A stretch of 64,000 nucleotides of DNA from an uncultured Candidatus Peribacteria bacterium (GTDB lineage Bacteria > Patescibacteriota > Gracilibacteria > BD1-5 > UBA2023), in contig CAYZVC010000004.1 of NCBI GenBank assembly GCA_964482035.1, positions 19,572 through 83,571 on the forward strand, in the 5' to 3' direction. The notes under the pieces were generated by a model. It searched no databases and was not told the origin of the DNA. It saw only the letters and a program-made list of their open reading frames with translations. Below, piece by piece: positions 24,089 to 60,438 of the stretch (its first letter is position 1; each line of letters opens with the position of its first letter). A program made the translations under genes and the position numbers.

Positions 24089-24107
24089 GTAATGAGGGCT
24101 CGCTATT

Positions 24108-24641: not shown

Positions 24642-24714
24642 GCGTTGATGTTCAATAGAGATAGAGCGAACACAATCCAGCTAACGATTAATCAATCCAG
24701 GATACTGGCAGCCA

Positions 24715-25874: not shown

Positions 25875-26447
25875 ATGCCATTTTCCAAAGCATTCCCCGA
25901 TACATGGAACGAAGCTGTTGCCGAATTGTCTGCCTCGATGCGTTTCTCCGATTTTCCCTACAATCGAAATATTTCGTTTTTCAAAGCTTTCGTAAATGGA
26001 CGGGAATTTGAAATCCCTCAAAGGATCACGTTCGATCAGTTGGACGATACGCCCTTGGATAAGGAAAGCGCTACGATTTACGCTTGCATGCTCTCTCGAC
26101 ACGTCGACGGACACCTGAGGGGAGAATGAGCGAAACTCCTTGCTCTCCACGAAGAGGACTGGATCATGCCATACGTTTTGCGCTTAATCGGAGAATACGT
26201 ACCGGGAATATCGGCCGTACTTCTCCAAGGCATTGGAAGATTCAATCCGAAAGAATTGAACTCCTTCCTGAAAGCCAACCCCGAGCTCTACGAACTCGTC
26301 CAAAGGCAGGCAATAAGCTATCACAACGAATACTACCGAGAAATTCCACTGACGGAATATCCGCCATTTTTAGCATTGAAACGCATTTCCGAGGTTGGAA
26401 AAATACCGCTTTCCCGAAAAGTTTTCTCAGTAAACAACATCAATTAA
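25875..26447 (+). CDS. hypothetical protein (190 aa)
   Basis: Pieces 25875-26129 and 26166-26447 are in frame and joined by TGA 26127-26129; TAA stop. Confidence 0.55.
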
Positions 26448-26466
26448 GACCCCCCTCATTTCCCAT

Positions 26467-26496
26467 TTGACTTAAAGCACTTTAAGTTATTAGACT
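26467..26496 (+). promoter_or_regulatory. MerR-type promoter/operator (TTGACT, dyad, TAGACT)
   Basis: TTGACT 26467-26472 and TAGACT 26491-26496 with an 18-nt spacer containing the dyad ACTTAAAG-CA-CTTTAAGT (26470-26487), just upstream of the merR-family gene. Confidence 0.5.
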
Positions 26497-26522
26497 GTGC
26501 GCAGGTATTTCCGAAACCTCCC

Positions 26523-28868: not shown

Positions 28869-29285
28869 ATGCCGCCCGCAAAAACCCCCCATACGAAGCC
28901 CGCGGTTAAGAAAACCCTGAGTTTCCGCGGCTTCACCCTCGCCGAACTCATCGTCGTCGTCACCATCCTCGCCATTTTGGCGACGATAGGTTTTTTGGCG
29001 CTCTCCGGCTATACGCAGGACGCCAAGGACGCCGGCGTGAAAACCAACGTCCGTTCGGTCTATACCGCAATCACCGCGGAAAGCGCGGTATCCGGAAATT
29101 CGCCCCGGTACTACGTCGTCCACGATCCGGACGCGGCCCTTTCGGGCGGAATCGTCTTCGTCAGCGGAAACCCGAACGTCCTTACCGGAGGCGACTGGAA
29201 TACGCCCGGAACGAACTATTCGGCGGGCAATCCCGATTACGTGAAGCTGAAGCTGAATCCTGAAAAATTCCGCATCGCTTCGGCG
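28869..29285 (+). repeat. pilin N-terminal module, paralogous copy 2
   Basis: See 7945-8350; similarity stops where the C-terminal domains begin. Confidence 0.7.
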
Positions 29286-30203
29286 TTCTGATTCTTCGAC
29301 TCGGCACAAGCGTTCGATACCAAACAGCCGGTCATTGGCGCGGCGGACATGACGGAAGGATCCTCGGGCGCAAGGTTGACCCGTTCGGTCGGCTACGTTC
29401 AAGTCGTCTGAGCGCAGCCTTCCGGTTCGTACGTGGTCGTGGGGAATTACCCGACGACGGTTTCGGGTTCGGTCTCGGGACTCGTGAAAGATCCTTCGTC
29501 AAATAGCCTTACGGGCGCGGTGGTCGAGGGCGGTACTGCCGGCTCCTCTTCGACGAGCGGCCCGGTGACGGTAACGGTTTCGTCGAATTCGTACGACTAC
29601 GACATGTTCGTTGCCGCAGGATCCCCCTCCGGACCGGTTTCCGTTACGGTAACGCTCGCTCCGGGGACGGTGCTCTGAGCTTCAACGACCTCGAAGTACG
29701 CCTTCGATACGGGAACGGGATGGGCTGCGGGCTCGACGCTCAAGCTCGTCGTCTGAACCGGCGCGTACGTCAGCGGACGCGGCGGAAACGGCGGCGGTGC
29801 CGGGCGTTCGTACGCCGGAGACGCTGGAGGTCCTGCGTTCCGTGCGCAATACCCCATCTCGGTCACGAATTTTTGAACCATCCAATGAGGCGGAGGAGGA
29901 GGCTGATCGAGGCCGGACCTCTCTTGGTGAGGCGGCGGCGGTTGAGCCGGCGCGGACGGATGAGTGGGATGAGTGGGCGGAGGATACGACGACGGCCAAT
30001 GACCCAACGGCCGCGTAGGAACGCTTACGGCATGAGGAATCTGAGGATTCTACTACGGAGGAGGCGGGGGAGGACCCGGTGCGGCAGGAGCGGCATCGGC
30101 CACCATCGGACCCCAGCCCGGCTGAGCCGGCGGAGCGGCGGTAACCGGAAATGCGAAAGTCACTTGGACGGCAGCGGGAACGAGATTGGGGGCGGTGAAT
30201 TAA
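28869..30203 (+). CDS. type IV pilin-like protein, paralogue of 7945-9255, with a different Gly-rich C-terminal domain
   Basis: SFRG/FTLAELIVVVTILAILA prepilin motif; pieces 28869-29291, 29433-29678 and onward share one frame to TAA 30201-30203; 15 in-frame TGAs by my count, 13 of them in the GGGGG-type tail. Confidence 0.8.
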
Positions 30204-34372: not shown

Positions 34373-37300
34373 TTAGGCGGATTTCTTCTTGGGTTTCACG
34401 TCTTCGCGGTAGAGCACCTTGAGTGCGCAAGGAATAAAGACGAGCGTGATGGTGGTGCCTACGATGAGTCCGCCGGCGAAAGCCAACGCGAACGGCCTCC
34501 ACATTTCGTCGGAAGCGGCGAGGACGAAGAGCCCGAGCGCCGTGATGGCCGTAGTGAGGAATACCGGTTCGAGACGCGATTTGACCGATTCGACGATGAT
34601 CGCGTCGAGGTCGCCCTTCCCTCCGGAACTCTCGAAGAGTTCGTTGAAACGGTTGACCAGATAGATGATGTGCGCCAACCCTACGCCGATGAGCCCGAAG
34701 AACCCGAGGTCGACCATGAAGCTCATGGTGAGTCCGCTCAGAAGGAGGAACGCGAGCGCGCCGGTAAGGAAGAGCGGCATGGTGGCGACGAGGATTCCCG
34801 GCTGCCGGAAATTGCCGAAGTTGAGCACGAGGATGGCGAACATCAGCACGAAGCCCACGAGAAACGCCATTCCGAGGTCTTTTCCGGACTGTTCCATGTC
34901 TTTGACGTCGGCACCGTAGGCCATCTGGACGGCCGGATATTTCGCTACGATGGCGTTGATCTTGGCGGTCGCCTCAGAGAGCGTGAGGTCGTTCCTTTTA
35001 TTGGCTTCTACGCGCACGACGAGGTTTCCGTCGAGGTGCTGGAAGCTCTTGAGCTGGGGCTGGAGACGCGTTTCTTTCAGTACTTCGGAAAGGTAGGCGT
35101 TGGTACCGGGGATGACGAGGTTCTTGAAGTCGACGCTCGCGCCCGAGCCGGACTGGTACGCCACGTATCCGCGGACAGGAATCACGTCTTTGCCGAAGTC
35201 GCCGAGGCTGGTAATCGAAATGCCGTTGCCCTTGTATTCGGTGAGGGCGTTGGATTGCCCCTTCTGATGAATGGAATACACGAACGCGTCGAGTTCGGCG
35301 GGGGCGATGCCGAGCTGGGCCAAACGGTCGAGGTCGTAGACCATTTCGACCTTTCCGTTGGTGTGTTGCAGACTGCTGGTCCAACCGTAGGTTCCGTCGA
35401 TGGCCTTGAGTTCGCCGAGCATCTTTTCGTATTCTCCGGCGAGCTTTTCGATTCCCCCTTCCGAACCGGAAAGCGAGAGGTTGAAGGTAACGTCCTTTCC
35501 TTCGCTCGGACCGGACTTTTGGATCATGACCGTCACGTCAGAAACGCGTTTCGAAAGTTCGGGGTCGGCGGCGATCTTTTCGCCGAGGAACTCGTGGAGT
35601 TCGGAATACATGTGGACCGCGTTGTCTTTTTCTTCGCGGCTGTCGGTATCGGTAAGAACGACGTTGAACTTGGTGAGGTCGGGATTGAAGCTGGAGCGGT
35701 AGACGGTGTTGTCGAGCGCGGACTGGGAGAAGTTTTCGCCAAGGCTGATTTCGAGGTTCTTTACGACCCCCGGGTGCTTTTCGCTGAAGAATTCTTCGAT
35801 AAGGTCCGAGAGTTTCGCCGTGGCCGCCTGGTTGGCTTCCATGCCCGTATCTTTGGAATAGGAAACGTTGACGTAGATGTTGTCCTTGTCGGTGAGCGGC
35901 ATGAAGTCGGCCGCGCCGAATTTGGCGAAGGCGATGATGACGAACACGAAGAGCGCGTAGAACGCCGTGATGAAGAATTTGGGCGTTTTGAGGATGCGTT
36001 CGTACATTCGGTCAAACGGCTTTTCGAAGCGCGAGAAGAATTTTTCGAGTTTTCCATGTCCGTCGCCCTTGCGGACTTTGAGATCCATGTACGAAAGCAC
36101 GAGCGGCAAGAACACGAACGCCACCACGATGGAGAACGCGAGGGTGAGGTTGACCGTGACTGGCAAAAACTTCATGAATTCGCCCATCTTTCCGCTGAGC
36201 ACGAATCCGATGGGAAGGAACATGGATATCGTGACGAGGTTTCCGATGAGGAGCGGTTTCCAGTAGATGGACAACGAGTGCTGGATGGCGCGGAACTTCG
36301 AGTAGCCCTTGCGCATGCCGTCTTCGGCGCCCTGCGCCATGACGATGAGGTTGTCCACCATGATTCCGAGCGACAGATTGAGCGCGACGGAAACGATGCT
36401 GTTGAACGTGTAGCCCATCTGCTTGAGCGCGATGAACGACAACAGGTAGACGAACGGGAACGTGATGGCGACCGCGAACGATCCGCGGAGACCGAGGAAG
36501 ATGGTGGCGATGATGACGATGAGCACCGAAGTGTCGCGGAAGCCGTCCAAAAACGCGTTGAACGTCTGCTTGATGGATATCTCCTGCGAGAACATTTCCT
36601 GCTCCTTGATGCTGTCCTTCGCGAATTCCGCGGACTTGCCGGCGAGGTAGTCTTTGACGCCGCCGATGACCTTGAGGATGTCGGAACCCGGAGACTTATA
36701 GACCATGAACGTCACCGCGTTTTCGCCGTTGACGTAGGAAAGGCGCTGGTAGAACGGGTGCGTTACGGAGACCTTCGCCAAATCTTTGAGGCGGAGCACG
36801 TTGCCGTTCTGGTTGACGAGCGGCACGTTTTCGAGGAAGTCGCGGAACTTCGAAAGCCGTTCGTCGACGTCGCCGGAGGTGCGCCCGTAGGTGCGAACCT
36901 CGAAACCGTAGAGGTTGCCTTCGAGTTTCTTCTTGTCGACCGGCTTCTGTTCGATGCTCGACGAAAGCATCTGCACGAGCACGGGAAGGCGGAGGTTGTA
37001 CCCGCGGAGCTTGTCGTAATCGAATTCGACTTCCACTTGCGAAACGTATTTCCCCACTACCGCGACCTTGTCGACCCCGGGAATCTTTTTCAATTCGTCT
37101 TCCATTCCTCCGACCTTGTCGAAAAGGACCGACGGATAGTACGGCCCCATGACCGAGAACGAATAGACCGGCATGTCTTTGGGGTCGGTCTTCGTCACCG
37201 CGATGTCGGAAACGCCCGTCGGGAGCGAGGCGCGCACTTCGTCGACGGCGGATTTGAGATCGGCGTACGCCGTACCCTTGTCGACGCCGCGCTGGAATTC

Positions 37301-37576
37301 GAGGTTGATGACCCCGACGTTGTTGGTGCTGACGGATTTGAACGTCGAAATGCCCTTTACCGACGGCAGCTTGTCCTCAATCTTCGAAATGACCTGCTGT
37401 TCGATGGTTTCGGCGTCGGCGCCCGGGTAGACGGCGGTGACGTTGAAGAACGGAAGGTTCACTTCCGGAATGGATTCCTTCGACATCGTCGTAAAACTGA
37501 CGTAGCCGATGGCCGCGAGCAATATCATGACGATGAGGAGGAACGGCCTAAAGGCCAAAAAGCGTTTTTCGAACAT
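34373..37576 (-). CDS. RND-family efflux transporter permease (AcrB/HAE type)
   Basis: Intact 1067-aa ORF with 12-TM / two-large-loop architecture and typical N-terminus FLAFRPFLLIVMILLAAIGYVSF; no TGA. Confidence 0.9.
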   Translation of the reverse strand: MFEKRFLAFRPFLLIVMILLAAIGYVSFTTMSKESIPEVNLPFFNVTAVYPGADAETIEQQVISKIEDKLPSVKGISTFKSVSTNNVGVINLEFQRGVDKGTAYADLKSAVDEVRASLPTGVSDIAVTKTDPKDMPVYSFSVMGPYYPSVLFDKVGGMEDELKKIPGVDKVAVVGKYVSQVEVEFDYDKLRGYNLRLPVLVQMLSSSIEQKPVDKKKLEGNLYGFEVRTYGRTSGDVDERLSKFRDFLENVPLVNQNGNVLRLKDLAKVSVTHPFYQRLSYVNGENAVTFMVYKSPGSDILKVIGGVKDYLAGKSAEFAKDSIKEQEMFSQEISIKQTFNAFLDGFRDTSVLIVIIATIFLGLRGSFAVAITFPFVYLLSFIALKQMGYTFNSIVSVALNLSLGIMVDNLIVMAQGAEDGMRKGYSKFRAIQHSLSIYWKPLLIGNLVTISMFLPIGFVLSGKMGEFMKFLPVTVNLTLAFSIVVAFVFLPLVLSYMDLKVRKGDGHGKLEKFFSRFEKPFDRMYERILKTPKFFITAFYALFVFVIIAFAKFGAADFMPLTDKDNIYVNVSYSKDTGMEANQAATAKLSDLIEEFFSEKHPGVVKNLEISLGENFSQSALDNTVYRSSFNPDLTKFNVVLTDTDSREEKDNAVHMYSELHEFLGEKIAADPELSKRVSDVTVMIQKSGPSEGKDVTFNLSLSGSEGGIEKLAGEYEKMLGELKAIDGTYGWTSSLQHTNGKVEMVYDLDRLAQLGIAPAELDAFVYSIHQKGQSNALTEYKGNGISITSLGDFGKDVIPVRGYVAYQSGSGASVDFKNLVIPGTNAYLSEVLKETRLQPQLKSFQHLDGNLVVRVEANKRNDLTLSEATAKINAIVAKYPAVQMAYGADVKDMEQSGKDLGMAFLVGFVLMFAILVLNFGNFRQPGILVATMPLFLTGALAFLLLSGLTMSFMVDLGFFGLIGVGLAHIIYLVNRFNELFESSGGKGDLDAIIVESVKSRLEPVFLTTAITALGLFVLAASDEMWRPFALAFAGGLIVGTTITLVFIPCALKVLYREDVKPKKKSA

Positions 37577-37597
37577 GGAAGGAATCGGATACGGGCT

Positions 37598-39484
37598 TTA
37601 GCGGCAGAGGACGTCGCCGGAAGAAAGCCCCGAACGGACTTCTACGCGGTCGGAATCGAGGTCGCCCAAGACGACGGTCTTTTCGGTGACGGAACCGTCG
37701 GCCGATTTGGCCTTCACGCGGAACCCGCCGATGGTGTTGGTAATGAAATTCACCGGAACGGAAATCTTCGCCGAAGAAAGCGCCGAGCCGGATGCCGTAG
37801 CCGAAACGTCAATGACGCGCCCTTCGGAAACGACCGAGGAAAGTCCGACGGTTTTGCCGTCCTGAACCGCGGACGACGAGGTTTCGTAGATGGAGTTCTG
37901 CGTTACCGGATCCTGATAGCTGAGCTTGGCCTTGAGTTCGGAAGAATACTTCTTGCCGTCGATTTCGAACGAAACCGGAAGCGGCAACGGGAGGTCGTCG
38001 GGGGAATACGCCTGGATTTTCAAGCCCGATTCGTCCGGAACGATCTGGCAGACGGTGGCCCCTGCGGCGACCTTGTTGCCTTCGCTCGCGGATTTTTCCT
38101 TTACGGTACCCGCGATGTCGGAGACGACCGACTGGGTCACGAGGGCGTTGGCGACATTGGTCAGGCCGTTTTCCAGCTGGGCGATCTGGTTGTTCAACTG
38201 GTTGATCTGGATTTCTTTCTGCGACTGGAGCGATTCGATCTGCGAATTCACGCCGCTCAGGTTGGTTTTGAGCGTAGCGAGCGACGAGACCGACTGGTTT
38301 TTCTGGAGGTCGAGCGACGAAACGTAGCTGCCGAGCTTGTTCGACTTCACGTTGTCGATATTGGCCAATACGCTCTTCTTGCTGTTCTCAGCGCCGTTGA
38401 TCTGGGTGCTGAGCGAAAGGATCTGGGTGTCGTAGGTGTTACGGACGGTGTCGAAACTCTTGCCGACGGCGTCGAAACTTCCCTTGGCGGTAAGGATGCC
38501 GTTTTCGAATTGGACGAGCGTGCCGAAAAGCGAGTCGATGGTGGATTGCGAAAAGTTGGTGGAAACGACCGATCCCTTCACCGATTCCTTCGCTTTGCCC
38601 AAGAGGTCGGCGACGGAACCGAGGAACGCGGACTGCGCGTCGGCGTCCATCGAATCGAACTTCATGAACGCGGCATTGGCAGCGGACCATCCGGAAACTA
38701 CCGAGTTTTTCAACGAGGAATCCTTGGCGCCCAAGTAGGTGTCGTAGGCGTCGTTCTTTTCGCGGTTCTTATCGGAAATTCCGTAGGTTTCGTCCAAAAC
38801 GGTGAGCGCGTTGGCTACGAGCGCCTTGGATTGGTTTCGGGCATTGGCGAGGTTGGAATCGAGCTTGGCCAAATCGGCCTTTTGGGAATCCTGAAGCTTG
38901 GCTTTGGAAGCGGTGAGGTCGGCGATTTGGGTGTCGAGCGTGGAGAGCTGGATGTTCAGAAGGTCGAGCTGCTTGTCGATGTCGGAAACGCCGAATCCGC
39001 GCTGCTCCTCGATCTTGGAAAGCGTGTCTTCGAGAATGGAAATCTGGTTTTCGAGATTGGATTTCTGCGTCTGGAGCGAACCGAGCTGGGTGGCGAAGTT
39101 CGAATTGGTAGAAGCGAGGATTTCGCGGGTATTGGAAAGCTGCGAAGAGAGCGATTCCTTTTGGGAAATCTGGTTCTTTACGGAAACGTCCGAAAAATCG
39201 GGAACGATCTTGGCGACCACGTCACCCGCGCGGACCTTCTTCCCCTTTTCGCACGAGAGGGATTCCACCGTGCCGCCGTTACCGGCGGAAAGGTTGCGGA
39301 CGTTGTCGGAAAGGACCTTCGCTTTGAGCGTGAGGGAACGGTCGCCGGAAGAACCGACCTGGAAGGTTTCGGCGCACGTCGCACCGGAACTCGAGGCGGA
39401 GGGAGTGGCGGCTTCTTGGGTTTTTCCGCAGGAAGCGAGAAGCGCCGCGCAAAAAACGGCGGCGATGACGGGAGATTTTCGCAT
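37598..39484 (-). CDS. efflux adaptor (HlyD/membrane-fusion family) lipoprotein with an unusually long coiled coil
   Basis: Lipobox AALLAS-C-G; biotinyl/lipoyl-like GDVVAKIVP and GATVCQIVP halves separated by about 400 aa of heptad-like Q/S/L/N repeats; C-terminal beta domain; directly upstream of the RND gene. Confidence 0.8.
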   Translation of the reverse strand: MRKSPVIAAVFCAALLASCGKTQEAATPSASSSGATCAETFQVGSSGDRSLTLKAKVLSDNVRNLSAGNGGTVESLSCEKGKKVRAGDVVAKIVPDFSDVSVKNQISQKESLSSQLSNTREILASTNSNFATQLGSLQTQKSNLENQISILEDTLSKIEEQRGFGVSDIDKQLDLLNIQLSTLDTQIADLTASKAKLQDSQKADLAKLDSNLANARNQSKALVANALTVLDETYGISDKNREKNDAYDTYLGAKDSSLKNSVVSGWSAANAAFMKFDSMDADAQSAFLGSVADLLGKAKESVKGSVVSTNFSQSTIDSLFGTLVQFENGILTAKGSFDAVGKSFDTVRNTYDTQILSLSTQINGAENSKKSVLANIDNVKSNKLGSYVSSLDLQKNQSVSSLATLKTNLSGVNSQIESLQSQKEIQINQLNNQIAQLENGLTNVANALVTQSVVSDIAGTVKEKSASEGNKVAAGATVCQIVPDESGLKIQAYSPDDLPLPLPVSFEIDGKKYSSELKAKLSYQDPVTQNSIYETSSSAVQDGKTVGLSSVVSEGRVIDVSATASGSALSSAKISVPVNFITNTIGGFRVKAKSADGSVTEKTVVLGDLDSDRVEVRSGLSSGDVLCR

Positions 39485-39496
39485 GCTGGATTTGGA

Positions 39497-39697
39497 TTAT
39501 TCGAGGGTGACGCCTTCGGCGCGGGCGTATTCGATAAGGCTGAGCAGGTCGTCGTTGCGGATGAGGGCTACTGCGCGTTCGTCCTTTACGACGATGGTGA
39601 CGCCGGTACCCGGCTGAAGGCCGAGTTTGTCGCGGACGTCCTTGGGAATGACGATTTGCCCCTTGGTTCCGACGATGACGGTACCGCAAAGGCGCAT
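39497..39697 (-). CDS. AbrB/MazE/SpoVT-family DNA-binding protein
   Basis: GTKGQIVIPKDVRDKLGLQPGTGVTIVV swapped-hairpin motif; GGAGG SD; first gene of the adaptor-RND operon. Confidence 0.85.
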   Translation of the reverse strand: MRLCGTVIVGTKGQIVIPKDVRDKLGLQPGTGVTIVVKDERAVALIRNDDLLSLIEYARAEGVTLE

Positions 39698-39885
39698 TTT
39701 TCCTCCGGAAGGGGAAAGCTTGTTTCAATTTTTTCCTTCGGACATCTTACGTTTCTTTATGAAGTATGACTAAACATACTTGTATGATATTTCATATTTT
39801 TGAGATTTCAAATGCAAAGATGGGAAGAGTGTTATTTGGATTTCGCGCCGTTTCGCTATAATCCGTCAGTTCCAAACCCGAAATC

Positions 39886-41370
39886 ATGAAAACCTTCTAC
39901 GTCACCACCCCCATCTACTATTCCAACGGCATCCCGCATATCGGGCACGCCTACGCTTCGTTCATCGCGGACGTTTTGGCAAAGCACCGCCGCAACCTCG
40001 GATACGAGGTGAAATTTTCGACGGGCGTTGACGAAAACAGCCAGAAGGTGGTCGAAAAGGCCGCCGAAGCGGGCATGGGCATCATGGAATACTGCGATTC
40101 CATGGCTGGCAAACACCAGGCCATCTGGGATGGGCTCGGCATCACCTACACCGATTTCGTACGCACCACCACCGATCAGCACAAAGCCTTCGTACAAGGC
40201 GTTTTGCAGAAATCGTTCGACAACGGCGACATCTACCTGGGCGAATACGAAGGCCTCTACTGCGTGGGTTGCGAAGCGTTCAAGAAGGCTTCCGACCTCA
40301 CCGAAGACGGCCTCTGCCCCGACCACAAGAAGAAGCCCGACGTCATCAAGGAGAAGAACTACTTCTTCCGCCTTTCCAAGTACGAAGCGGCGCTTAAGGA
40401 GCTCTTCGTAAAAAATCCCGATTTCATCGTTCCCCGCTCCCGCGGAAACGAAGTCGTACAGTTCATCGAAGAAGGGCTCGAAGACTTCTCGATCTCCCGC
40501 GAAGGCAGCACCTTCGGCATTCCGCTCCCGTTCGACAACAGCCACGTGACCTACGTCTGGTACGACGCGCTTTTCAACTACGTCAGCGCCTGCGAGGGCG
40601 GCGACGAGAAATTCTGGCCGGCGGACGTGCACGTCGTAGGTAAGGACATCATCCGTTTCCATGCCATTTTCTGGCCGGCGATGCTCATGTCGGCAGGATA
40701 CGCTTTGCCGAAAAACATCCTCGCTACCGGGCACTTCACCATCGACGGACAGAAGATCTCCAAGAGCCTCGGCAACGCCATCGATCCGGTGGAATTCTGC
40801 CAGCAGTACCCTAAAGAGCTTCTCCTCCTCTACCTCCTCACGTCCTTCCCCATCGGTCAGGACGGCGACTTCTCGGTAACGCAGGCGGTCAACGCGTTCA
40901 ACGCCAAGCTCGCCAACAACTTGGGCAACCTCCTCAACCGCTTCCTCGTGCTTTCGCTCAAGCAGGGCGGTAAAATCGACGGAACCATGGACGGCGAAGT
41001 CGAAACCAAGAAGCTCGAATTCGTGGCTGCGTTCGAAAAGGCGATGGAATGCTTCGACCTCCGCGCGGCGCTCGAATCGGCATTCGAATTCGGCGACGTT
41101 CTCAACAAGTTCGTCGACACGAAGAAACCCTGGGACAAAGAAGCCACCGGCGTCGTCGATACGCTCCACACCGTGGGCGAAGGACTCCGCGCCATGGCGA
41201 TTTGCCTCATGCCGTTCTTCCCCGAGAAGATGTCCGAACTTCTCGACCGCATGGGTCTCGCCTCGCAGCGCGAACGCCTGCTTGCCGGAAAATATAGCGA
41301 AGTCGTATCGGAAAAAACCGCGTTCTCCGTCGCCGAAAAGGGCGAACCGCTCTTCCAGCGCATCGCGTAA
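39886..41370 (+). CDS. metG: methionyl-tRNA synthetase
   Basis: TPIYYSNGIPHIGHAY (HIGH), KISKSLGN (KMSKS), CxxC knuckle CVGCEAF...CPDH; intact 494 aa, no TGA. Confidence 0.95.
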   Translation: MKTFYVTTPIYYSNGIPHIGHAYASFIADVLAKHRRNLGYEVKFSTGVDENSQKVVEKAAEAGMGIMEYCDSMAGKHQAIWDGLGITYTDFVRTTTDQHKAFVQGVLQKSFDNGDIYLGEYEGLYCVGCEAFKKASDLTEDGLCPDHKKKPDVIKEKNYFFRLSKYEAALKELFVKNPDFIVPRSRGNEVVQFIEEGLEDFSISREGSTFGIPLPFDNSHVTYVWYDALFNYVSACEGGDEKFWPADVHVVGKDIIRFHAIFWPAMLMSAGYALPKNILATGHFTIDGQKISKSLGNAIDPVEFCQQYPKELLLLYLLTSFPIGQDGDFSVTQAVNAFNAKLANNLGNLLNRFLVLSLKQGGKIDGTMDGEVETKKLEFVAAFEKAMECFDLRAALESAFEFGDVLNKFVDTKKPWDKEATGVVDTLHTVGEGLRAMAICLMPFFPEKMSELLDRMGLASQRERLLAGKYSEVVSEKTAFSVAEKGEPLFQRIA

Positions 41371-43714: not shown

Positions 43715-43740
43715 GGAAAAACCCCCGTTCGAACGGGGGT
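43715..43740 (-). terminator. intrinsic terminator
   Basis: CCCCCGTTC/GAACGGGGG palindrome followed (minus strand) by TTTTT. Confidence 0.7.
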
Positions 43741-43750
43741 CGATTTCACT

Positions 43751-44848
43751 TTAGGAAATTCCGTAATCCTTGCGTAATTTCTCAATAACCGATTTCGCCA
43801 TGAGGTACTTGTGCGAAGTTTTCCAACTGCCGTCGGTCTTGCCTCAGAACGTTTCCGGTTCGTTTTCGAGCATTTCGAGCATTTTCGACGAGGGTACGAG
43901 TTCGACCGCGTCGATTTCGCGACGGTCGAAACCGGTAACCTCGCCGCGGAATTCGAACGCGTACACGTCGACGCGTTCGTTGTTGTCCTCGACGATTTCG
44001 CGTCCTTCTTTGTTCTTTTTCGTGACGGAAGCGTACGGGGCGTTGAATTCTACGAGTTTCAAAGCCGGGACCTCGGGAAGGAGGGAATCGAAATCGATGA
44101 CGCCCGAAGCCGAAACCGTGGGAATGCGTTCAGTCCGTTCGAGACGGATGCCGGTCTCCTCTTCGATTTCACGGAGCACCGAGGTGAACGAAACGTATTT
44201 CCTGAGCCCCGGATTCACCGAGCCGTCGGCCGGGTACGCATTGGAACCGTTTCCTGGCGCGGCGGGGATTTCGGAAACCGCGTACCCCACGTGCCCGCCT
44301 CAAAGCCTTTGCCAATGCGCTTTGCCGGTGGCCGATTTCTCAGCGGAACGCTTGCCCATGTAGATGCCGATGTCGCCGATGTCGCGGTACGCGTCGGGAT
44401 TTACGGCCCAATAGTGGGTGGAAATATGGCCTATCCCTTCTTCGTGGGCGACTTTTCGGTCGACGAGGCGAGAAGTGAGTCGGCCCTTGGAATCGATTTC
44501 CGGGAGGTACTCGACCCTTTTTTCCGCGAGGGCATTCAAAACCCCGTCCAAAACCGCGGTTCGGACCGATTGGAGGTCGGGAGATTTACGAAACGCCTCG
44601 AAAAGGGCGCGATCGCTGAAAGAAAGCGTTTTTACGGGCTTCCCGTCTTGCGAGAACACGACGTTCGAAGTTCCGTCCACATAACCGCCGAGCACGGTAT
44701 AGAAAGGGAAATTTTTGACCGTTCCGTCCTCGAAGCGCGCTTGGACGCCATGGAAATTCGGACCTCATCAAAATCCCTCGCCGATGCCGATGCGGCAGTC
44801 GGTGGATTCGGTGACGAGAATATGGGAATCGGTCGCGTTATGGCTCAT
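43751..44848 (-). CDS. NUDIX-family hydrolase with an N-terminal extension
   Basis: Pieces 43844-44290 and 44300-44695, plus upstream, share one frame via TGAs (including a tandem TGA-TGA in GEGF-GG-GPN); Nudix box ...LREIEEETGI. Confidence 0.7.
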
Positions 44849-47630: not shown

Positions 47631-50600
47631 ATGCGCGACGGAAAGAACGGGAATGACCGAATCGAAACCGAATGAAAAAACGGAACTCCGGAATGGGGTT
47701 CCGACGTTTTGTCGACGAACGTATCGCGACACGTCACATGAACCCTCGAATTGGAAAAGGGCGCCGTTTCGGCGATTTTCGAATCGGCGCTCGACCGTGT
47801 GGCCGAAACCTGAGGCAAGTACCGCCGCATCTGGCTGGTCCGCCATTTCGACTACGAAGACTCGGAAGAAGCGCGGGAATACGTGAAACGATCCAAAGAA
47901 GACAAGAGCAAGATGTCGAAGGAAAAGATCGACGAACTCAACGAACTCAGCAAAAAAGTGCGTGCGAACGTGAACGATCCGTTCATCCAGAAGATCCTCT
48001 TATGATCCCTCAGGGGACGGCCGGACAAAACGAAAACGTCGGTGTATCTGGATATCGAAGCAAGCATCGCGACCCGAAACAAGATGACCTACGAGTGGGT
48101 AGCGAACTCGGGAGAACTTAAGGATTGGCTCGTTACCAAAAGATTCAAGATCACGACGGAAAAGGTCGACGACAATGGGGAAAAGAACTTTCGGGCATTT
48201 TCGGAAATCAAGAACATACTGGACGATTGGACGAGCGACAAAGACGGAGGCGACGGCGTGATTTTTGGCAACAGGACGCCTTCTCACGCGTTCTGAATTC
48301 GCGTCTGACGGCCGTGTTACAGCGAAAAGGACCATACCGACCAAATGGAGCGTCTCGGTTACGATTTTTTGGACATTGAAAAAGCGACGGGGAAACCCGT
48401 TCTCATCCAAAATGGAAAAACGCTCAGGGTCACGTTGGAAAACCTTGACGGAATCGAAAAAGCCATTCTTGACACCGGTGACGATACCGGGAGGAAAGCG
48501 AAGATTTCGAAAGCTTTTTCGGAATTTCCGCTCATCATGCTTCAGGAAGCCATCAACGAAGTGATTGCGGAACTGGAGAAGACGGATCGTGCGCAATACT
48601 TGGCCGTCTTGCGCTCGCTTTGCGAATGGAAAGACGCCAAAGGGAAACACGATCCCGAACTGCAAGCGTACGTTTTCGAACGGCTCATCGAAAACTGATT
48701 TCCATGGGAAACCCTGCTGCAATGGGAATGGTCGACGGGCGCGCTCGAATGGATGGCGACCAAAGGGTACCGCGAAATGGTCATCCGGTATTTTTGAGAT
48801 TCCGAAGAAGGGCCGACGGGCGATCTCGGACCTTTTGCCAAATCGATCAACGTCAAGGGAATGAAGGAACTCTTCGCGGACGCGTACGAATACTGGAAGA
48901 TTCGACAAAAGCAGAAGCGGTCGGTAGATCCGGCCATCCGCGCAGGCAAGAAGGGAGCTATCGCCGAAAGGTACGCGCATACCGCACGGTGAGACGGGAC
49001 CGAACGTCGGGAATACCTTAACTTCGAAGGGATCGCGAAACTCTCGACCGTACGTAACGTCGTGGTCCTCGGTACGATCGGGGAAGGAAAAAGCCTTTGG
49101 CTCTGCGAATTCGCCAAGTCCGCGATTGTCAAAGGCCAAAAAATCCGCTTTTACGAAGCACGGGACCTTTTGCCCAAATCTTTCCAGCGAGGAGGAAATA
49201 TTTTCGAAGAATTCGAAAATTTTCCGGAAGCGCTTTTCTGCGTAGACGGGATGGATGAAATCCGCGATCCGAAAACGCGCGACGAAATCAAATCGGCAAT
49301 CGATTCTCTCGGAAAACGTTTCATCATAGGATCGAGGCCCTCGGAATACTCCGAACACTCCGAAAAACATGCCACCGTCCGTCTCGCGGGAATGGAGCTC
49401 GACGATTTTCTCGAAGAGCGGTTCGACGATGAACGGGATAGGGAAAAAGTACGGATCCTCATTAGGGGCATGCGGTTTTCGGAAAGCGCACAATCATCGC
49501 AAACGGAAGCTGACCCGCTTCTGTTGGCTTTCGCTTGCATGCTTGCCGAGAACGGCGACCGCGCGGATTCTCCCGATTTCCGAAATAGGGCGGATTTGTA
49601 CGAAAACGCGGCGAAATACGTCCTTTCGAAACATTCCAAGGATTCCAAAGGACAACAGGATTACGATCCGTCCAGAGACGTGGACGGATGGATGAAAGAA
49701 TTGGGCAAGCGCGCTTACGAGAAATTTTCGGGAACCGAAAAAATCGGGGCGGACCGATATTCCGATACGCATTTAGGACTTCTCTACCGAAAAGAAGGGA
49801 CCGAAAAATACGAATTCGCGCACCACTCGTTTTACGAGTATTTCCTCGCGAGGCATTTTGCGGAAAATCCGGAATCATTCGAACGGGGAGGCCGTGAAGG
49901 ATTGCCGAACGGCTTAACCTCGGAACGGAACTCGCTTATCTACCTTGCCGAAATCCTTGCGAATTCCGGAAAAATCGAAGAGCTTGCCGAATTTCTTAAA
50001 AAGCTGCGTCGGTTTCCGGTAGAAAAAAAGCGAAAAGGTACGGATTCGGTTTCGGTCGGACGGACGCCGTTCATTACCTGACTGGAAATTCTGCACGCCC
50101 TTCCGAATGAGTTCTTAGGACTCCCCGAGATTCGTAAGATTCGGAAAAAGTACGAAAATGACGTATCCGAAATCGACGCGACTTGGATCGGAGAAAACTA
50201 CCAGGAAATATTGGAGTTCGCCAAGAGGACTGACCGTGCGGATTCGCCTCTTATCCTAAGGACGATCGACGTCTTCAAATCAGCCATCGAACCCCGAATA
50301 GCGAGCGAGGTGGGCGCCGACGATCCCATGTCCGGAATCACCGAATTGTGCAAGGCCCTCGCATCAATGGGAACCCCGTTGTCCGTATCGACGGCCGATA
50401 AGATCGAGAACGTGGTCCGAAAACTCAGACTGTCGCTTTTCATGCCGATTCCCGATTCCGAGGAAGATTTCCTGGCTCTTGAGGCGGATCTCAGAAGAGA
50501 AGACGTCCAAGGGGTATTTTGAAAATTCCACAAAGGGAAGAAGGATTTCGAATTCCATTTGGCAGCAATCGGCACCCAGTCATCCATGAGCGCGATCGAA

Positions 50601-50993
50601 TCACGCATAAAATACATGTCGGTTGACGACATGGCAAGAATGTACGAAACGATCGCCGGAGGACCGGTTTCGCGATTGTCCTTGGAAATCGCGGAAAAGG
50701 GCGCTCAAAAGATGATGGAAGGCGGGCATTACACGCCGGCACGCTGGATTTACCGCTCCATATTCGAAATGGGGACGAGAAAAGCCAAATTGATTGCCTT
50801 GAAATGAGCCAGAAGCCTGGAAGGAAAATGCAGGGATCCTTGGAAAATCTGGGCCAATTCCACTTTGTTCGACTACCGCGCCCCACGAAGGCTCCCTCCG
50901 GTCACGGACCTCTCGAAACTTCTCGTTTTGGAGGATCGTTGGAGCACAACGATCCGACGCATTTCGAAAATGAAAAAGCGCTTCTTGTGATAA
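47631..50993 (+). CDS. NACHT-type STAND NTPase (1120 aa), Avs/bNACHT-like candidate defence protein
   Basis: Pieces 48042-48296, 48345-48698, 49062-50081, 50211-50522 and 50559-50807 share one frame, joined by about 13 TGAs; Walker A VVLGTIGEGKS, Walker B LFCVDGMDE, FAHHSFYEYFLARH; ends ...RFL-G-TAA (50991-50993). Confidence 0.8.
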
Positions 50994-51012
50994 TCTTCGG
51001 ATCAAGTTCTCA

Positions 51013-51050
51013 GAAAAAGAACCGCCATCGCGGTTCTTTTTCTTTTTTCT
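51013..51050 (+). terminator. intrinsic terminator
   Basis: GAACCG-CCATCG-CGGTTC followed by a long T-run. Confidence 0.75.
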
Positions 51051-51131
51051 TCCGGTTTTTTCTTTTCGAGCCGAAGTACAAATGCCGTGCAAGTCGCTCA
51101 TTAACGTCAACGCTCTCGAAAGGAGAACACC

Positions 51132-51248
51132 ATGATTGCCAACGCACTGCTCATCGGGCTGGGCCTCGTCATCGGCTTCATCATCTGCGCCGTTTGGCTG
51201 GCCAAGAAGGTTTTTCGCGGCCTCGGTAAATTGAAAGACAAGTTCTGA
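51132..51248 (+). CDS. 38-aa single-TM micro-protein, apparent TGA stop
   Basis: AAAGGAG 6 nt before the ATG; MIANALLIGLGLVIGFIICAVWLAKKVFRGLGKLKDKF; TGA 51246-51248 sits just before the next SD. Confidence 0.5.
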   Translation: MIANALLIGLGLVIGFIICAVWLAKKVFRGLGKLKDKF

Positions 51249-51262
51249 AAGGAGAACCGGAC

Positions 51263-51790
51263 ATGAGAATCATTACCTACACGGTCATCAGTTTTATTGC
51301 GGCCTTGAGCGCGTGGGGATTCCTCACGTCCTGGTTCTTTGCCGCAGTAATCACGACGACCTTCGCGTACCCGTACTTTTTCGATACGCTGGTTTCGACC
51401 GGCATCGACCCTTGGACGGCAAGGACGCTCTCCGCGCTCTTCGCCCTCGGAACGCTCTTCGCGCTCCGGGAATGGGGACGAGGATCGAAAGCGAGGGCCG
51501 CCGTAATCGGCACCTTGCTGTTCGTCGCGATATTCGGCATAGCGAGATTCCAAACCGACGGATTCAACTTCGATCCGAAAACCGGAAAGAATCTCGTGAA
51601 CGTCGTACGTACTCCGGATGGTGGAAAAACGGTTCCCAAGCATTGGGCATACGATCCCGCCTCCGGAAACAAAACCGAAGCCGCCACGCCTGAAAACGTA
51701 CGGCACATCGGAAAACCCAACGGTTCCGAATCCGGAGACGGACAAGAACTTCGTCAATTGCAACGAATCCTGCGTTCGCAAAACCCCTGA
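51263..51790 (+). CDS. 175-aa membrane protein (about 4 TM plus a soluble tail), apparent TGA stop
   Basis: AAGGAG 8 nt before the ATG; intact in the ORF track; TGA 51788-51790 lies 10 nt before the next SD. Confidence 0.55.
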   Translation: MRIITYTVISFIAALSAWGFLTSWFFAAVITTTFAYPYFFDTLVSTGIDPWTARTLSALFALGTLFALREWGRGSKARAAVIGTLLFVAIFGIARFQTDGFNFDPKTGKNLVNVVRTPDGGKTVPKHWAYDPASGNKTEAATPENVRHIGKPNGSESGDGQELRQLQRILRSQNP

Positions 51791-51809
51791 ACTTCCATCG
51801 GAGGCAATC

Positions 51810-51959
51810 ATGCAATACCAAACCAATACCAAAAAGAAGGCGGCCATTCTGGTCATCTTCGGCCTTATGCTTACCGCATTCGGCATCCTGCTGGGAAAGA
51901 AACCCGAAGCGATCGACGCCATCAAGGCAAAAATCGCGGAACGTTTTCCTTCCAAGTAA
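51810..51959 (+). CDS. 49-aa single-TM micro-protein
   Basis: GGAGG 5 nt before the ATG; MQYQTNTKKKAAILVIFGLMLTAFGILLGKK...; TAA stop. Confidence 0.5.
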   Translation: MQYQTNTKKKAAILVIFGLMLTAFGILLGKKPEAIDAIKAKIAERFPSK

Positions 51960-52019
51960 TCCCCAATGGGCGGACGCCATCCATAACCGTCCGCCCGCTT
52001 TCCGTAAGAGGAGGCCGCC

Positions 52020-52127
52020 ATGCGGAAAACTCTCAAAGAAATCGCCCTCGAAGCTTTTATCGGAGGGATTACCAACGCCATTTACACCGGACTCCGGAGA
52101 TGGCTCATCAAATACGTAAAAGATTGA
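52020..52127 (+). CDS. 35-aa micro-protein, apparent TGA stop (or the N-terminus of the next gene if TGA=Gly)
   Basis: GGAGG 5 nt before the ATG; TGA 52125-52127 is in frame with ATG 52140. Confidence 0.4.
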   Translation: MRKTLKEIALEAFIGGITNAIYTGLRRWLIKYVKD

Positions 52128-52139
52128 AAGGAGTACGAA

Positions 52140-52661
52140 ATGTGGGGAAAAATCAAACCCGAATTGGCGGTTGCCATCATAATCATGGCCGTTGTCTTGG
52201 TGGGCTCCATGGTCGCCCGGAACGAGCCGCTCGTTCTCGCCGAATATTTCCCGCATTTCGCTCCGGAATCGGCAAAAACTCGACTGAAGCTCAAGAAGCT
52301 GGAAGAACTCGGAAATCAGATGCTGAAAGAATACGGCGATCTTGAAAAGGACCTCGAAATCCAGACGACGAAGCTTCAGTACCTTTTGGACGAAGTCGAA
52401 AGAAGGAATTCCGACAAAAGGAAAAAATCGGAAGTCGAGGAGGCGCGGGACTTCTACGAAAAACGCGCGATTGAGTCCTACAGGAAAACAATCCGAGAAA
52501 TACGGAAACGGATAGTCGCATTGAAATTGGCAAGCGCCGAGAAAGCGTTCATGGTGCGCGAACTCGAAGCCGAATTGAAAATGCAGACGATTCGAGAACG
52601 TAACGAAATCCTCGTACGGAAAATCGACGAAGCCGTTCCCAATACGGCTGCGAAAAAGTAG
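52140..52661 (+). CDS. 173-aa N-terminally anchored coiled-coil protein
   Basis: AAGGAG 6 nt before the ATG; TM helix ELAVAIIIMAVVLVGSMV, then K/E-rich heptads; TAG stop. Confidence 0.6.
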   Translation: MWGKIKPELAVAIIIMAVVLVGSMVARNEPLVLAEYFPHFAPESAKTRLKLKKLEELGNQMLKEYGDLEKDLEIQTTKLQYLLDEVERRNSDKRKKSEVEEARDFYEKRAIESYRKTIREIRKRIVALKLASAEKAFMVRELEAELKMQTIRERNEILVRKIDEAVPNTAAKK

Positions 52662-52728: not shown

Positions 52729-52758
52729 AAATCCCCCCGGAATTCCGGGGGGATTTTT
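52729..52758. terminator. bidirectional intrinsic terminator
   Basis: Perfect palindrome ATCCCCCCGGAATTCCGGGGGGAT flanked by an A-run and a T-run. Confidence 0.75.
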
Positions 52759-55955: not shown

Positions 55956-57110
55956 ATGTCCAAAGAATTCCTTTTCACCTCCGAATCCGTTTCCGAAGGC
56001 CACCCCGACAAGGTCGCCGACCAGGTTTCGGACGCCATTCTCGACGCCATCCTCACCCAAGACCCGTACGCCCGCGTAGGCGCCGAAACCCTCGTCAACA
56101 CGGGGCTTTGCGTCCTCGCCGGAGAGATTACCACCACCGCGAACGTCGACTACATCCAAATCGCCCGTAAGAAGATCGTGGAAATCGGCTACGATTCCTC
56201 CGAACTCTGCTACGACGGCAATACCCTCGCCGTCATGGTCTGCTACGACAAACAGTCCCCCGACATCGCCCAGGGCGTCAACGAAGGCCAGGGCATCGAC
56301 CTCGACCAGGGCGCCGGGGACCAGGGCCTCATGTTCGGGTTCGCCTGCGACGAAACCCCCGACCTCATGCCCGCGCCCATCTGGTACTCGCACCGTCTCG
56401 TAGAGCGCCAGTCGCAAGTGCGCAAAGACAAGACCCTTCCGTGGCTCCGTCCCGACGCCAAATCGCAGGTCACGTTCAAATACGTGGACGGCGTGCCGAC
56501 CGAAATCGACACCGTCGTGCTTTCCACCCAGCACCACCCGGACGTCAGCCACAAGCAAATCGAGGAAGCGATTATCGAAACCGTCATCAAGCCCGTAATC
56601 CCGGAAAACCTCCGCAAAAACGCCAAATACCTCGTCAATCCTACCGGACGCTTCGTCATCGGCGGCCCTATGGGCGACGCCGGACTTACCGGACGCAAAA
56701 TCATCGTCGACAGCTACGGCGGATCCGCTCCGCACGGAGGCGGTGCGTATTCCGGAAAAGACCCGTCCAAGGTCGACCGTTCCGCTGCTTACGCGGGCCG
56801 CTACGTCGCGAAAAACATCGTCGCGGCGGGTCTCGCGAAACGCTGCACCATCCAAGTCGCCTACGCCATCGGCGTAGCGAAACCGGTTTCGGTCTCCGTC
56901 GACACCGCCGGCACGGGAATCATCCCGGATTCGGCAATCGAAAAGCTCGTTCTCGAACATTTCGACCTGCGTCCGAAAGGGATCGTCCAAATGCTCGACC
57001 TTTTGAAGCCCCGATACGCGAAAACCGCCGCATACGGCCATTTCGGTCGCAACGACGCCCTGTTCACATGGGAGAAAACGGACAAGGCGGACGTTTTGAA
57101 AAACCGCTAA
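55956..57110 (+). CDS. metK: S-adenosylmethionine synthetase
   Basis: [31 protein letters not shown]..., [24 protein letters not shown]; ATG 55956 inside ORF 55812-57110. Confidence 0.95.
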
Positions 57111-59512: not shown

Positions 59513-60406
59513 ATGTCCTACTCAACCAAAAAATGGCTTTTCGCCGCGCTCGTCGCGATTGTCATGACCGCATTCGACGCGAAGGCCGACTATAAGGAAC
59601 TCTGGTCCCTCGGGGCGATCGATCCCGATTACGTCGCCGCGAAAAAATGCGGACCCGACGCCTTCGTGGTCATATCGTGGAACGTCGCGAATTTCGGCGG
59701 GAACGAACCGGCGGAACGGATCGAATCGTTGGCGAAAATCCTCCGATATTCCGAACTCGCGTTCGTACTCGAAGTCTCCGGAAGCTTCCAAGGTCCCAAG
59801 GCCGCGGCCATGCTCCAAGAAGAACTCATGCGCAAAGGGGCGAGATGGCGTATCGCCGTTTCCGATGCGACGACTGCGGAACCCGCCGGAAAAAACACTT
59901 CCGAACGGATGGTCGCGTATTGGAAGCAGCACGCCGTTTCCATGGGCGCGCTGAATTCGGGGCTCGTATCCGAACTCGCTCCCACGGTAGCGCGCGAACC
60001 CTACCGTATCGAAGCTACTACTTCTAAGCTCGGCAAGGTCGAATTCTATTCGTTCCACGCCAGGCCGGAAGGCTCCGGAGCGACGGAAGAAGCGGCCTTG
60101 GTCGCGGCCCATCTCGGCTCGAAGCGCGCTTCTTCCGAAATCGGGACCGTCGTACTGGGTGACTTCAACCTCTCCAAAACCCAACTCGACAAAGCCTTCG
60201 TTCCGCGCGGTTTCCAAGCGGGCGTATCTGGCGCGACGAGCCTGCGCAAAAACGGCGACGGCGTTTCCCGGAAACGCGACAACGCGTATTTCCGCAACGT
60301 TTCGGTCTGCGAAGCCGGACGAATCCGTACCGACAAAATCTTCGGCACGAATTCCGTCAACGTCAGCGACCACGTTCCCATCTATCTCGCCATCCAGGCG
60401 AACTGA
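59513..60406 (+). CDS. secreted endonuclease/exonuclease/phosphatase (DNase I-like) family protein, apparent TGA stop
   Basis: Signal peptide; ISWNVANFG and GDFN motifs, and SDHVPIYLAIQAN at the very C-terminus; TGA 60404-60406 followed by a terminator. Confidence 0.75.
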   Translation: MSYSTKKWLFAALVAIVMTAFDAKADYKELWSLGAIDPDYVAAKKCGPDAFVVISWNVANFGGNEPAERIESLAKILRYSELAFVLEVSGSFQGPKAAAMLQEELMRKGARWRIAVSDATTAEPAGKNTSERMVAYWKQHAVSMGALNSGLVSELAPTVAREPYRIEATTSKLGKVEFYSFHARPEGSGATEEAALVAAHLGSKRASSEIGTVVLGDFNLSKTQLDKAFVPRGFQAGVSGATSLRKNGDGVSRKRDNAYFRNVSVCEAGRIRTDKIFGTNSVNVSDHVPIYLAIQAN

Positions 60407-60410: not shown

Positions 60411-60438
60411 CGCCCCCGCTTCGAGCGGGGGTTTTCTT
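60411..60438 (+). terminator. intrinsic terminator
   Basis: CCCCCGC-TTCGA-GCGGGGG followed by TTTTCTT. Confidence 0.8.

Follow-up and report, generated by a model that had tools for sequence, protein, structure and literature searches.

Reassignment of a stop codon is usually held to be complete: once UGA means glycine and release factor 2 (RF2) has been lost, UGA cannot end a gene. Among the table-25 bacteria (GTDB class JAEDAM01, with BD1-5 and Absconditabacterales), which carry TGA at conserved Gly positions, prfB went undetected in the BD1-5 genomes examined (PMC6851277). Here we describe an operon of five small genes, g1 to g5, at positions 51132-52661 of a 64,000-nucleotide stretch of contig CAYZVC010000004.1 from an uncultured Candidatus Peribacteria bacterium (this whole stretch being what we call the window). 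The genome reads TGA as Gly, and it nevertheless keeps a class of genes that are led by strong Shine-Dalgarno (SD) sites, are under purifying selection and have UGA as their true ends; within the operon, g1, g2 and g4 end in this way.

The window resembles table-25 genomes in its use of TGA at conserved Gly residues and departs from them in three respects: its GC content (~55%) is at or above the range of 0.21-0.53 published for table-25 clades (PMC8629427), its native genes lack SD sites, and half of them lack TGA. Code-11-compatible phages have been predicted for table-25 Gracilibacteria and Absconditabacteria (Liu et al. 2023, mBio, PMC10746230), and their genes, like those of the operon, lack in-frame TGA and use it as a stop in a host that reads it as Gly. 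In those phages, however, the TGA stops are closely backed up, whereas the next stops here lie 33-271 codons off or past a terminator; moreover, the cluster is chromosomal, syntenic with a relative and without phage genes.

Two other comparisons concern the layout and the products. The arrangement TGA-AAGGAG-N6-8-ATG at g1/g2 and g4/g5, together with the ATGA at the g2 start, is that of translationally coupled operons in standard-code bacteria, and the g2-g3 pairs of two related loci, L094 (TAAGGAG) and L097 (TAA-tt-AAGGAGG), are coupled in the same manner. Such coupling needs a recognised stop, though, and in this genome the codon is otherwise Gly. The row of very small proteins with a single transmembrane (TM) segment plus one TM-plus-coiled-coil protein recalls phage lysis cassettes and small membrane toxins; unlike lysis cassettes, the operon has no holin or spanin family match, no endolysin and no phage context. 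In Condylostoma and Blastocrithidia, stop codons are context dependent, being sense inside genes and present at true ends too. The mechanism in these ciliates and trypanosomatids is eukaryotic and depends on eRF1 and on how near the codon lies to the 3′ end or poly(A); in the cluster, termination itself is hypothetical. We know of no bacterial codon whose meaning as stop or sense depends on context.

Terminal TGA codons in a TGA=Gly genome

A preliminary description of this DNA had taken TGA to mean Gly, and TGA indeed stands at conserved Gly positions of solved homologues. The in-frame TGAs at positions 33 and 102 of a Peptidase_C26 protein align with conserved Gly residues of 3fij/7d4r, and the sequence LLTTxVDA (where x is TGA) in HsdR aligns with LLTTGVDAP of 3h1t. 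Protein-like frames contain in-frame TGAs and no TAA or TAG, and the long TGA-free open reading frames (ORFs) elsewhere are shadow ORFs. To map the genes (~50 in all) we used an ad-hoc codon model, retrained on genes that inspection and homology had confirmed. Over the 16,292 codons of 47 confident native genes, TGA makes up 94 of 1,296 Gly codons (7.3%), and the stops are TAA (33) or TAG (13). The use of TGA is strongly bimodal, with no TGA at all in 24 of the 47 genes and up to 13-15 in-frame TGAs in a single one.

All five ORFs, the SD sites that precede their ATGs by 5-8 nt, and their stops lie where the preliminary description had placed them (Table 1), and its view of the layout as that of a standard-code operon is borne out by the strong SDs, the stop-SD overlaps and the absence of internal TGA (0 in 470 codons). 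The TGA of g2 lies 9 nt upstream of the GGAGG of g3, AAGGAG comes immediately after those of g1 and g4, and the ATGA overlap at the g2 start (51263-51266) holds the second in-frame TGA that a ribosome reading through from g1 would meet.

Relatives mark the places at which these proteins end. Two g2 homologues, P0031 (176 amino acids) and P0032 (178 amino acids), which have the C-terminal ELxxLxxxL motif in common with g2, end where g2 meets its TGA, and the g2 counterpart of L094 (g2′) ends in TAA at the same place. In a third related locus, L090, the g1 orthologue (38 amino acids, 53% identical) has TAA at the same codon as the TGA of the window, and the g4 orthologue (42 amino acids, 38% identical) has TAA a few codons past the position of the TGA. 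(The g4 TGA can also be aligned with a GGA Gly codon of L090, but that alignment is too short for reliance and was set aside.) These alignments place the three TGAs exactly at natural C-termini. L090 itself uses TGA as Gly, with a TGA aligned to Gly in its homologue of the neighbouring gene 'up' and a sense TGA inside its GH114 gene. The preliminary description had reasoned that TAA or TAG at these positions in table-25 relatives would refute its reading, by making the TGAs of the window recent mutations; L090 presents that case for g1 and, less exactly, for g4.

The read-through products given in the preliminary description proved exact. With TGA as Gly, g1 continues to the TAA at 51346-51348 (71 residues, 33 of them added, across the g2 start), g2 continues to the TAA at 52601-52603 (446 codons), and g4 and g5 become a single ORF of 213 amino acids (52020-52661). 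The codon scores of the extensions of g1 and g2 are -0.87 and -0.43 per codon, as compared with 0.33, 0.07, 0.28, 0.21 and 0.16 for g1 to g5 and a native mean of 0.24 (sd 0.10). All of our evidence on selection comes from strains that are 97-99% identical in nucleotide sequence, and the six related contigs in this range keep the five ORFs, all SDs and all three TGAs. Synonymous changes are in excess in the g2 frame (17/31, p = 0.001) and in the g3-g5 frame (15/31, p = 0.0045), with no excess in the g2 read-through frame (7/29, p = 0.71). A 1-nt indel in the g3-g4 spacer of two strains cuts the g2 run-on from 271 to 65 codons, and the sole coding indel among the strains is an in-frame 3-nt deletion in g5 (contig L002). 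All five ORFs are real genes, kept by purifying selection, and the frames entered by read-through are non-coding: a conserved coding signal in these frames, which by the preliminary description would have spoken against it, was sought in the codon scores, the substitutions and the indel, and none was found.

The contrast in SD use that had been noticed between the operon and its surroundings extends across the window. Duplex energies with the anti-SD run from -8.2 to -12.0 kcal/mol for g1 to g5, as opposed to a mean of -1.2 for the 47 native genes, which have essentially no SDs and none of which reaches -8. Random positions average -2.8 kcal/mol, so native starts pair with the anti-SD more weakly than random ones do. 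Native starts tend instead to have a TAA-like, G-poor motif ~13-15 nt upstream (TAA at -15 to -13 in about one third), which suggests a non-SD mode of initiation.

Two genes outside the operon join this class. One forms a single-gene cassette whose ORF begins at 9329; its 126-residue product has six variants, 94-98% identical and all of 126 amino acids, of which one is NCBI MFZ3232743.1 (Patescibacteria group bacterium). Because its next in-frame TAA or TAG (9989-9991) lies beyond the terminator, its mRNA would be stopless if TGA is Gly. The other is a DNase I-like gene whose protein ends ...SDHVPIYLAIQAN-TGA, with an SDHVPIYLAI motif that falls on the final residues of DNase gamma (7kiu) when the two are aligned; its run-on would take 192 codons across the next gene. 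Beyond the TGA, the next in-frame TAA or TAG is 33 codons away in g1, 65-271 in g2, 178 in g4 (through fusion with g5), 94 in the 9329 gene and 192 in the DNase-like gene.

TGA stands at the natural end of five of the seven SD-class genes and of at most two of the 47 SD-less natives, whose natural ends were judged by codon-score tails and a few alignments (Fisher p = 1.3e-4). The window holds a minority class of genes in standard bacterial style, with a strong SD, no internal TGA, a TGA end and often a terminator behind it. In the related TGA=Gly loci, each recognisable terminator stands after TAA or TAG. No local context distinguished the terminal TGAs from the 94 sense TGAs: the g1 context, TTC-TGA, is the commonest sense context (15/94), and the base after TGA is not distinctive. 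The absence of TGA from the 35 Gly codons of g1 to g5 and the 9329 gene is weak as a distinction (P = 0.07 under the native rate).

Relatives and age of the operon

The GH114-like neighbour of the operon has graded relatives, with L090 and L091 among them. The same-strand order in L090 is 'up', a terminator, a conserved 45-nt element, g1, g3, a hairpin, g4, a terminator and GH114; g1, g3 and g4 are SD-led there and all stop at TAA, and g2, g5, the NACHT-like gene and Peptidase_C26 are not in the locus. Because the identities of g1 and g4 given above and that of g3 (67%) are similar to those of 'up' (51%) and GH114 (82%), the small genes have diverged like their neighbours. The terminator 5′ of the cluster in L090 is homologous to that at 51012-51043 in the window, and the element that follows it is conserved between the two loci though the flanking proteins are only 51-82% identical. 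The element is a candidate promoter or leader; a sigma-70 scan found no promoter there, upstream of g1, and an Rfam scan of the locus gave only sub-threshold noise. At the g3-g4 position L090 has a hairpin of different sequence (-24.7 kcal/mol), and L094 has a full terminator behind g3′.

L094, a GC-rich contig of 4211 nt from the same run series, holds an inverted 'up' fragment, a 5′-truncated g1, g2′, g3′ and several SD-led small genes. There, g1 ends in an ATGA overlap, the TAA of g2′ overlaps an SD (TAAGGAG) and g3′ ends in TAA; identity to the window is 37-40% throughout, in the 'up' fragment, g2 and g3 (37%) alike. Since L094 has no sense TGA in ~1,000 codons and TGA stands at five of the eight gene ends, that of FabI included, it is probably a standard-code relative that shares the locus, a code assignment inferred from 4.2 kb. 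This FabI ceases to resemble the solved FabI structures 19 residues ahead of its TGA, and the tail is junk. In the distant, low-GC L097, TAA-tt-AAGGAGG couples a gene of the g2 family to one resembling g3, and because both L094 and L097 carry the pair, g2-g3 is an old SD-coupled module.

The g2 family consists of uncharacterised membrane proteins, with 15 homologues at E <= 1e-3 and no Pfam model. Its marks are N-terminal TM helices, the motifs FPYF, NFDPxTG and VPxxWxYDP, a C-terminal ELxxLxxxL helix and a g3-like gene next to it. An insertion of g2 and g5 as TGA-flanked cassettes was considered and, for g2, dropped, since g2-g3 is an old pair and g2 is as diverged from L094 as g3 and 'up' are. 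Orthology and synteny argue that the operon is resident and old in the lineage, not newly arrived.

Taken as a recent event, the import from a phage, a plasmid or the host bacterium that the preliminary description proposed finds only partial support: L090 carries orthologues of g1, g3 and g4 in the corresponding place, with neighbour-like divergence, and no donor emerged. Searches of 5.8 billion proteins with g4-g5 and g2 returned strain variants only (those of g5 94-98% identical), the GTDB species representatives held no relative of g5, and IMG/VR had no true match for g2, g3, g5 or the 126-residue protein. One IMG/VR candidate, L087, was a chance pattern match to a small terminase subunit and was rejected. 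Translated searches (tblastn) of PLSDB and INPHARED with g2 and the 126-residue protein found nothing, nor did scans of JGI metagenomes with the g2 and GH114 families, in a collection that does not contain the source contig. Within these collections, the homology search that had been proposed for the products thus turned up no homologue in a phage, a plasmid or a donor. Genes for phage functions or mobility are missing beside the cluster, and there is no adjacent endolysin. Codon usage was rejected as a test of native or foreign origin, as a MetK gene of Burkholderiales type and the L094 genes score as native.

None of g1 to g5 matched Pfam, PHROGs, NCBIfam or PADLOC, and the holin or toxin roles suggested earlier find no support in these collections. 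By inference only, the proteins probably form a small membrane-embedded assembly around the conserved g2-g3 pair, because of that pair itself, the single-pass peptides, the membrane-anchored coiled coil and the division into two sub-operons by a hairpin. The cluster lacks the marks of an effector module of a STAND/NACHT defence gene: a terminator separates the two, the L090 cluster has no NTPase, and PADLOC gives no match. The linkage to the NACHT gene, raised in the preliminary description, is seen within the species only, with hypervariable alleles; it is absent from L090, and the terminator between is strong.

Readings of the terminal UGA codons

Our data establish the genetic code, the places where the genes end, the existence of the SD class, the orthology of the genes and selection on the ORF frames; what ribosomes do at these UGAs, where the TGAs came from and what the proteins do biochemically we can only infer. 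The reading that we favour, tentatively and short of calling it probable, is that the terminal UGAs are read as Gly in a TGA=Gly host, the gene ends being standard-code in style, defective but tolerated. The operon would then be a resident, SD-driven, tightly packed unit for five small proteins, four of them membrane-anchored. Ribosomes from g4 would run in frame into g5 and make a 213-amino-acid fusion, with g5 also made alone from its own SD; g1 would gain a 33-residue tail overlapping the g2 start, and g2 an unconserved junk tail of 65 or 271 codons depending on the strain, or alternatively its ribosome would reach the 3′ end of a transcript that had been cut at the g3-g4 hairpin. The 9329 and DNase-like cassettes would yield non-stop messages. 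The TGAs would be unrepaired stops of standard-code type, owed either to gene flow with standard-code relatives that have the same operon or to TAA-to-TGA transitions. Standard-code-like alleles may stem from organisms of the L094 type, and the uptake of foreign genes appears to occur, because MetK is 70-75% identical to the Burkholderiales enzyme. The TGAs would persist in accessory genes because run-on products are tolerated, and the genome does tolerate defects, such as an HsdR gene with an in-frame TAG.

Several points weigh against read-through. Since g1, g2 and g4 look vertically inherited in a TGA=Gly clade, three natural-end TGAs are unlikely either as relics or as independent neutral losses: relic stops that predate the recoding should not survive the divergence of the window, L090 and L094, and three independent neutral TAA-to-TGA fixations in a selected operon seem improbable. 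No G-to-A repair has occurred in six strains despite purifying selection on g2 and g5 and polymorphism at ~13% of g2 synonymous sites. Back-up stops are not near (33, 65-271, 94 and 192 codons off), and the run-ons of the 9329 and DNase-like genes would cross terminators and give non-stop mRNAs, which is hard to square with the conservation of the 126-residue protein. Finally, no close standard-code donor was found.

The next candidate, which we consider doubtful, is that UGA truly ends translation here, being Gly in SD-less natives and a stop at the ends of SD-led genes. Termination could come from a retained or alternative release activity, or from rescue-type release at a slow UGA before a terminator hairpin or an occupied initiation site. 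It would account for the concentration of natural-C-terminus TGAs in the SD class (5/7, against at most 2/47 natives), for their invariance in all strains, and for ORFs that are under purifying selection while the run-on frames vary freely, even by a frameshifting indel. It also fits the two genes in which, as with ordinary stops, an intrinsic terminator follows the TGA after 5-14 nt, the ATGA start/stop overlap at g1-g2 in both the window and L094, and the missing back-up stops. On the other side, table-25 bacteria have no known UGA-stop factor (prfB being reported absent; PMC6851277), a general release activity would be very costly given the 13-15 TGAs in native genes, no sequence context parts the terminal TGAs from the sense ones, the TGA=Gly relative L090 has TAA in the same genes, and the cases number about five in one 64-kb window. 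The broader claim, that UGA keeps a second, context-dependent stop meaning in a GC-rich TGA=Gly lineage at the ends of a distinct SD-led gene set, we hold to be unlikely; such a dual meaning would perhaps be linked to the mode of initiation, to the downstream terminator or start site, or to retained release activity. We rank read-through first and termination second, and sequence data alone cannot decide between them.

The remaining accounts fare worse. We give a low probability to a recent import of the whole five-gene module from a standard-code phage, plasmid or host, its expression scrambled on arrival. Such an origin would explain the SDs, the TGA stops overlapping SDs and the 470 codons free of internal TGA; the genome does acquire foreign genes, MetK for example, and code-11-compatible phages of table-25 hosts have been described (PMC10746230). 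But the lack of internal TGA is not significant (P = 0.07), SD-led orthologues of g1, g3 and g4 sit at the same locus in L090 and are no more diverged than their neighbours, and the equal divergence of g2, g3 and the 'up' fragment from L094 (37-40%) fits vertical descent. Homologues are likewise missing among phages and plasmids (g2, 126-residue protein), in IMG/VR (g2, g3, g5, 126-residue protein) and in GTDB (g5), as are adjacent phage or mobility genes. Just as low is the probability that the operon is decaying and the TGAs are stop-loss mutations in unneeded genes. Other defects in the window, namely the TAG in HsdR and a possible junk tail on the NACHT-like gene, and the absence of g2 and g5 from L090 could be taken in that sense, against which stand the synonymous excess in g2 (p = 0.001) and g3-g5 (p = 0.0045) and the intact SDs, starts and frames of six strains, in which the sole coding indel is in frame. 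Recoding at the UGA is barely plausible. CCC-UGA is a shift-prone site in E. coli, of the five terminal TGAs, those of g2 and of the 9329 gene are preceded by CCC, and a +1 shift at the g2 TGA would enter a frame open into g3 (51789-51809), fusing the two proteins through the predicted junction peptide SQNPELPSEAIMQYQ. An open frame of 7 codons is expected by chance, however; in L094 and L097, g2 stops at TAA and g3 is a product of its own; and g1 and g4 have no CCC-TGA site.

If UGA is read through, a recoded genome lives with standard-code syntax, at the cost of fusions, junk tails and non-stop messages, and gene flow across the code boundary is not blocked. If it terminates, this would be the first bacterial codon whose stop or sense meaning is set by context, and it would bear on ambiguous intermediates in codon reassignment. 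For annotation, table 11 shatters the native genes and table 25 fuses or extends the SD-led class, and neither is correct.

Features and other genes of the window

Table 1. Positions of the operon genes, their signals and the other TGA-ending genes (numbered from the first nucleotide of the window)
Feature	Position	Strand	Description	Remarks
g1	51132-51248	+	38 aa, single-TM peptide	stop TGA 51246-51248
g2	51263-51790	+	175 aa, membrane protein	stop TGA 51788-51790
g3	51810-51959	+	49 aa, single-TM protein	stop TAA; conserved g2 partner
g4	52020-52127	+	35 aa, amphipathic, without TM	stop TGA 52125-52127, in frame with g5
g5	52140-52661	+	173 aa, N-terminal TM, then long charged helical region	stops TAG, then TAA
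SD of g1 (GAAAGGAG)	51118-51125	+	6 nt before ATG	duplex energy -8.7 kcal/mol
SD of g2 (AAGGAG)	51249-51254	+	abuts g1 TGA; 8 nt before ATG	-8.7 kcal/mol
SD of g3 (GGAGG)	51800-51804	+	5 nt before ATG	-9.5 kcal/mol
SD of g4 (AGGAGG)	52009-52014	+	5 nt before ATG	-12.0 kcal/mol
SD of g5 (AAGGAG)	52128-52133	+	abuts g4 TGA; 6 nt before ATG	-8.2 kcal/mol
Intrinsic terminator of upstream NACHT/STAND-like gene	51012-51043	+	14-bp stem and T-run	left boundary of unit
Conserved upstream element (TTTTTTCTTTT...AGTACAAAT.CCGTG)	51044-51092	+	putative promoter/leader	kept between window and L090
Hairpin between g3 and g4	51968-51996	+	internal, terminator- or attenuator-like	-20.6 kcal/mol, z = -3.3
Bidirectional intrinsic terminator	52731-52754		common to convergent Peptidase_C26 gene	right boundary of unit
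Single-gene cassette	9266-9747	+	126-codon ORF 9329-9709	TGA 9707-9709; outside cluster
Cassette promoter-like site	9266-9293	+	TTGACA-N16-TATTTT	
Cassette SD	9317-9322	+	AAGGAG	
Cassette terminator hairpin	9721-9747	+	12 nt past TGA	-32 kcal/mol
DNase I-like gene	59513-60406	+	Exo_endo_phos, signal peptide; AAAGGGGA SD-like site, -7.8 kcal/mol	TGA 60404-60406
Terminator of DNase-like gene	60412-60432	+	5 nt past TGA	

The preliminary description had called all five products small membrane proteins. By a simple hydropathy scan this is right for g1, g3 and g5, with one TM segment each, and for g2, with several, and wrong for g4, which has none. An AlphaFold2 (AF2) model of g2 (predicted local distance difference test, pLDDT, 80) has three TM helices, a small beta-sheet and a C-terminal helix, and a fold search with it against the PDB gave no match at E <= 0.001.

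The neighbours of the cluster are a STAND-like NTPase, Peptidase_C26 and the GH114-like protein. Of the NACHT gene and terminator that had been placed upstream, the terminator is present, and the gene matches STAND NTPase models weakly. Its alleles (47631-50993 in the window) are 60-66% identical between strains, beside flanks of 91-96%; others lie at 5197-7650 of L002 and at 1917-4145 and 5271-7523 of L003, with a second paralogue in L003 and L004. Their site, between 'up' and the cluster, resembles a hotspot of defence genes in its behaviour. In the NACHT-like gene of the window, the last 61 codons, after a TGA at 50805, have a junk-like composition.

In JGI, the source contig is 3300028826 Ga0310076_1043036. 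As to lineage, P0048, a strain variant 97% identical to one window protein, carries the NCBI label 'Patescibacteria group bacterium'. Neither prfB nor tRNA-Gly(UCA) lies within the 64-kb window, where the tRNAs found are tRNA-Cys, tRNA-Ala and a doubtful tRNA-Phe. The last, called by ARAGORN (anticodon AAA, 69 nt, 43715-43783 on the minus strand), overlaps a terminator hairpin (43720-43741) and is probably a false call.

The use of TGA varies widely among the other genes. Two type IV pilin-like paralogues (7945-9255 and 28869-30203, with N-terminal FTLAELIVV) both have Gly-rich tails full of TGA, and in one of them the Gly-rich C-terminal region holds 15 TGA codons, the densest use in the window. 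In the stretch 34373-41370, by comparison, an RND efflux pump, an adjoining 628-residue gene and a 494-residue aminoacyl-tRNA-synthetase-like gene (Pfam tRNA-synt_1) have zero TGA in 1067, 628 and 494 codons. MetK (55956-57110) has no TGA, stops at TAA and lacks an SD, and its 70-75% identity to Burkholderiales MetK points to horizontal acquisition from Betaproteobacteria, perhaps from the host. HsdR (type I restriction, 16710-18926), ~60% identical to the Vibrio enzyme 3h1t, contains 8 sense TGAs. An in-frame TAG at 17208-17210 interrupts it, as a nonsense mutation or as a further peculiarity of decoding. In a low-GC island at ~20000-26500 (41-46% against 55%) lie HsdS and an HATPase-like gene, each rich in TGA=Gly codons; the composition of the island is foreign, and it already uses the code of the host.

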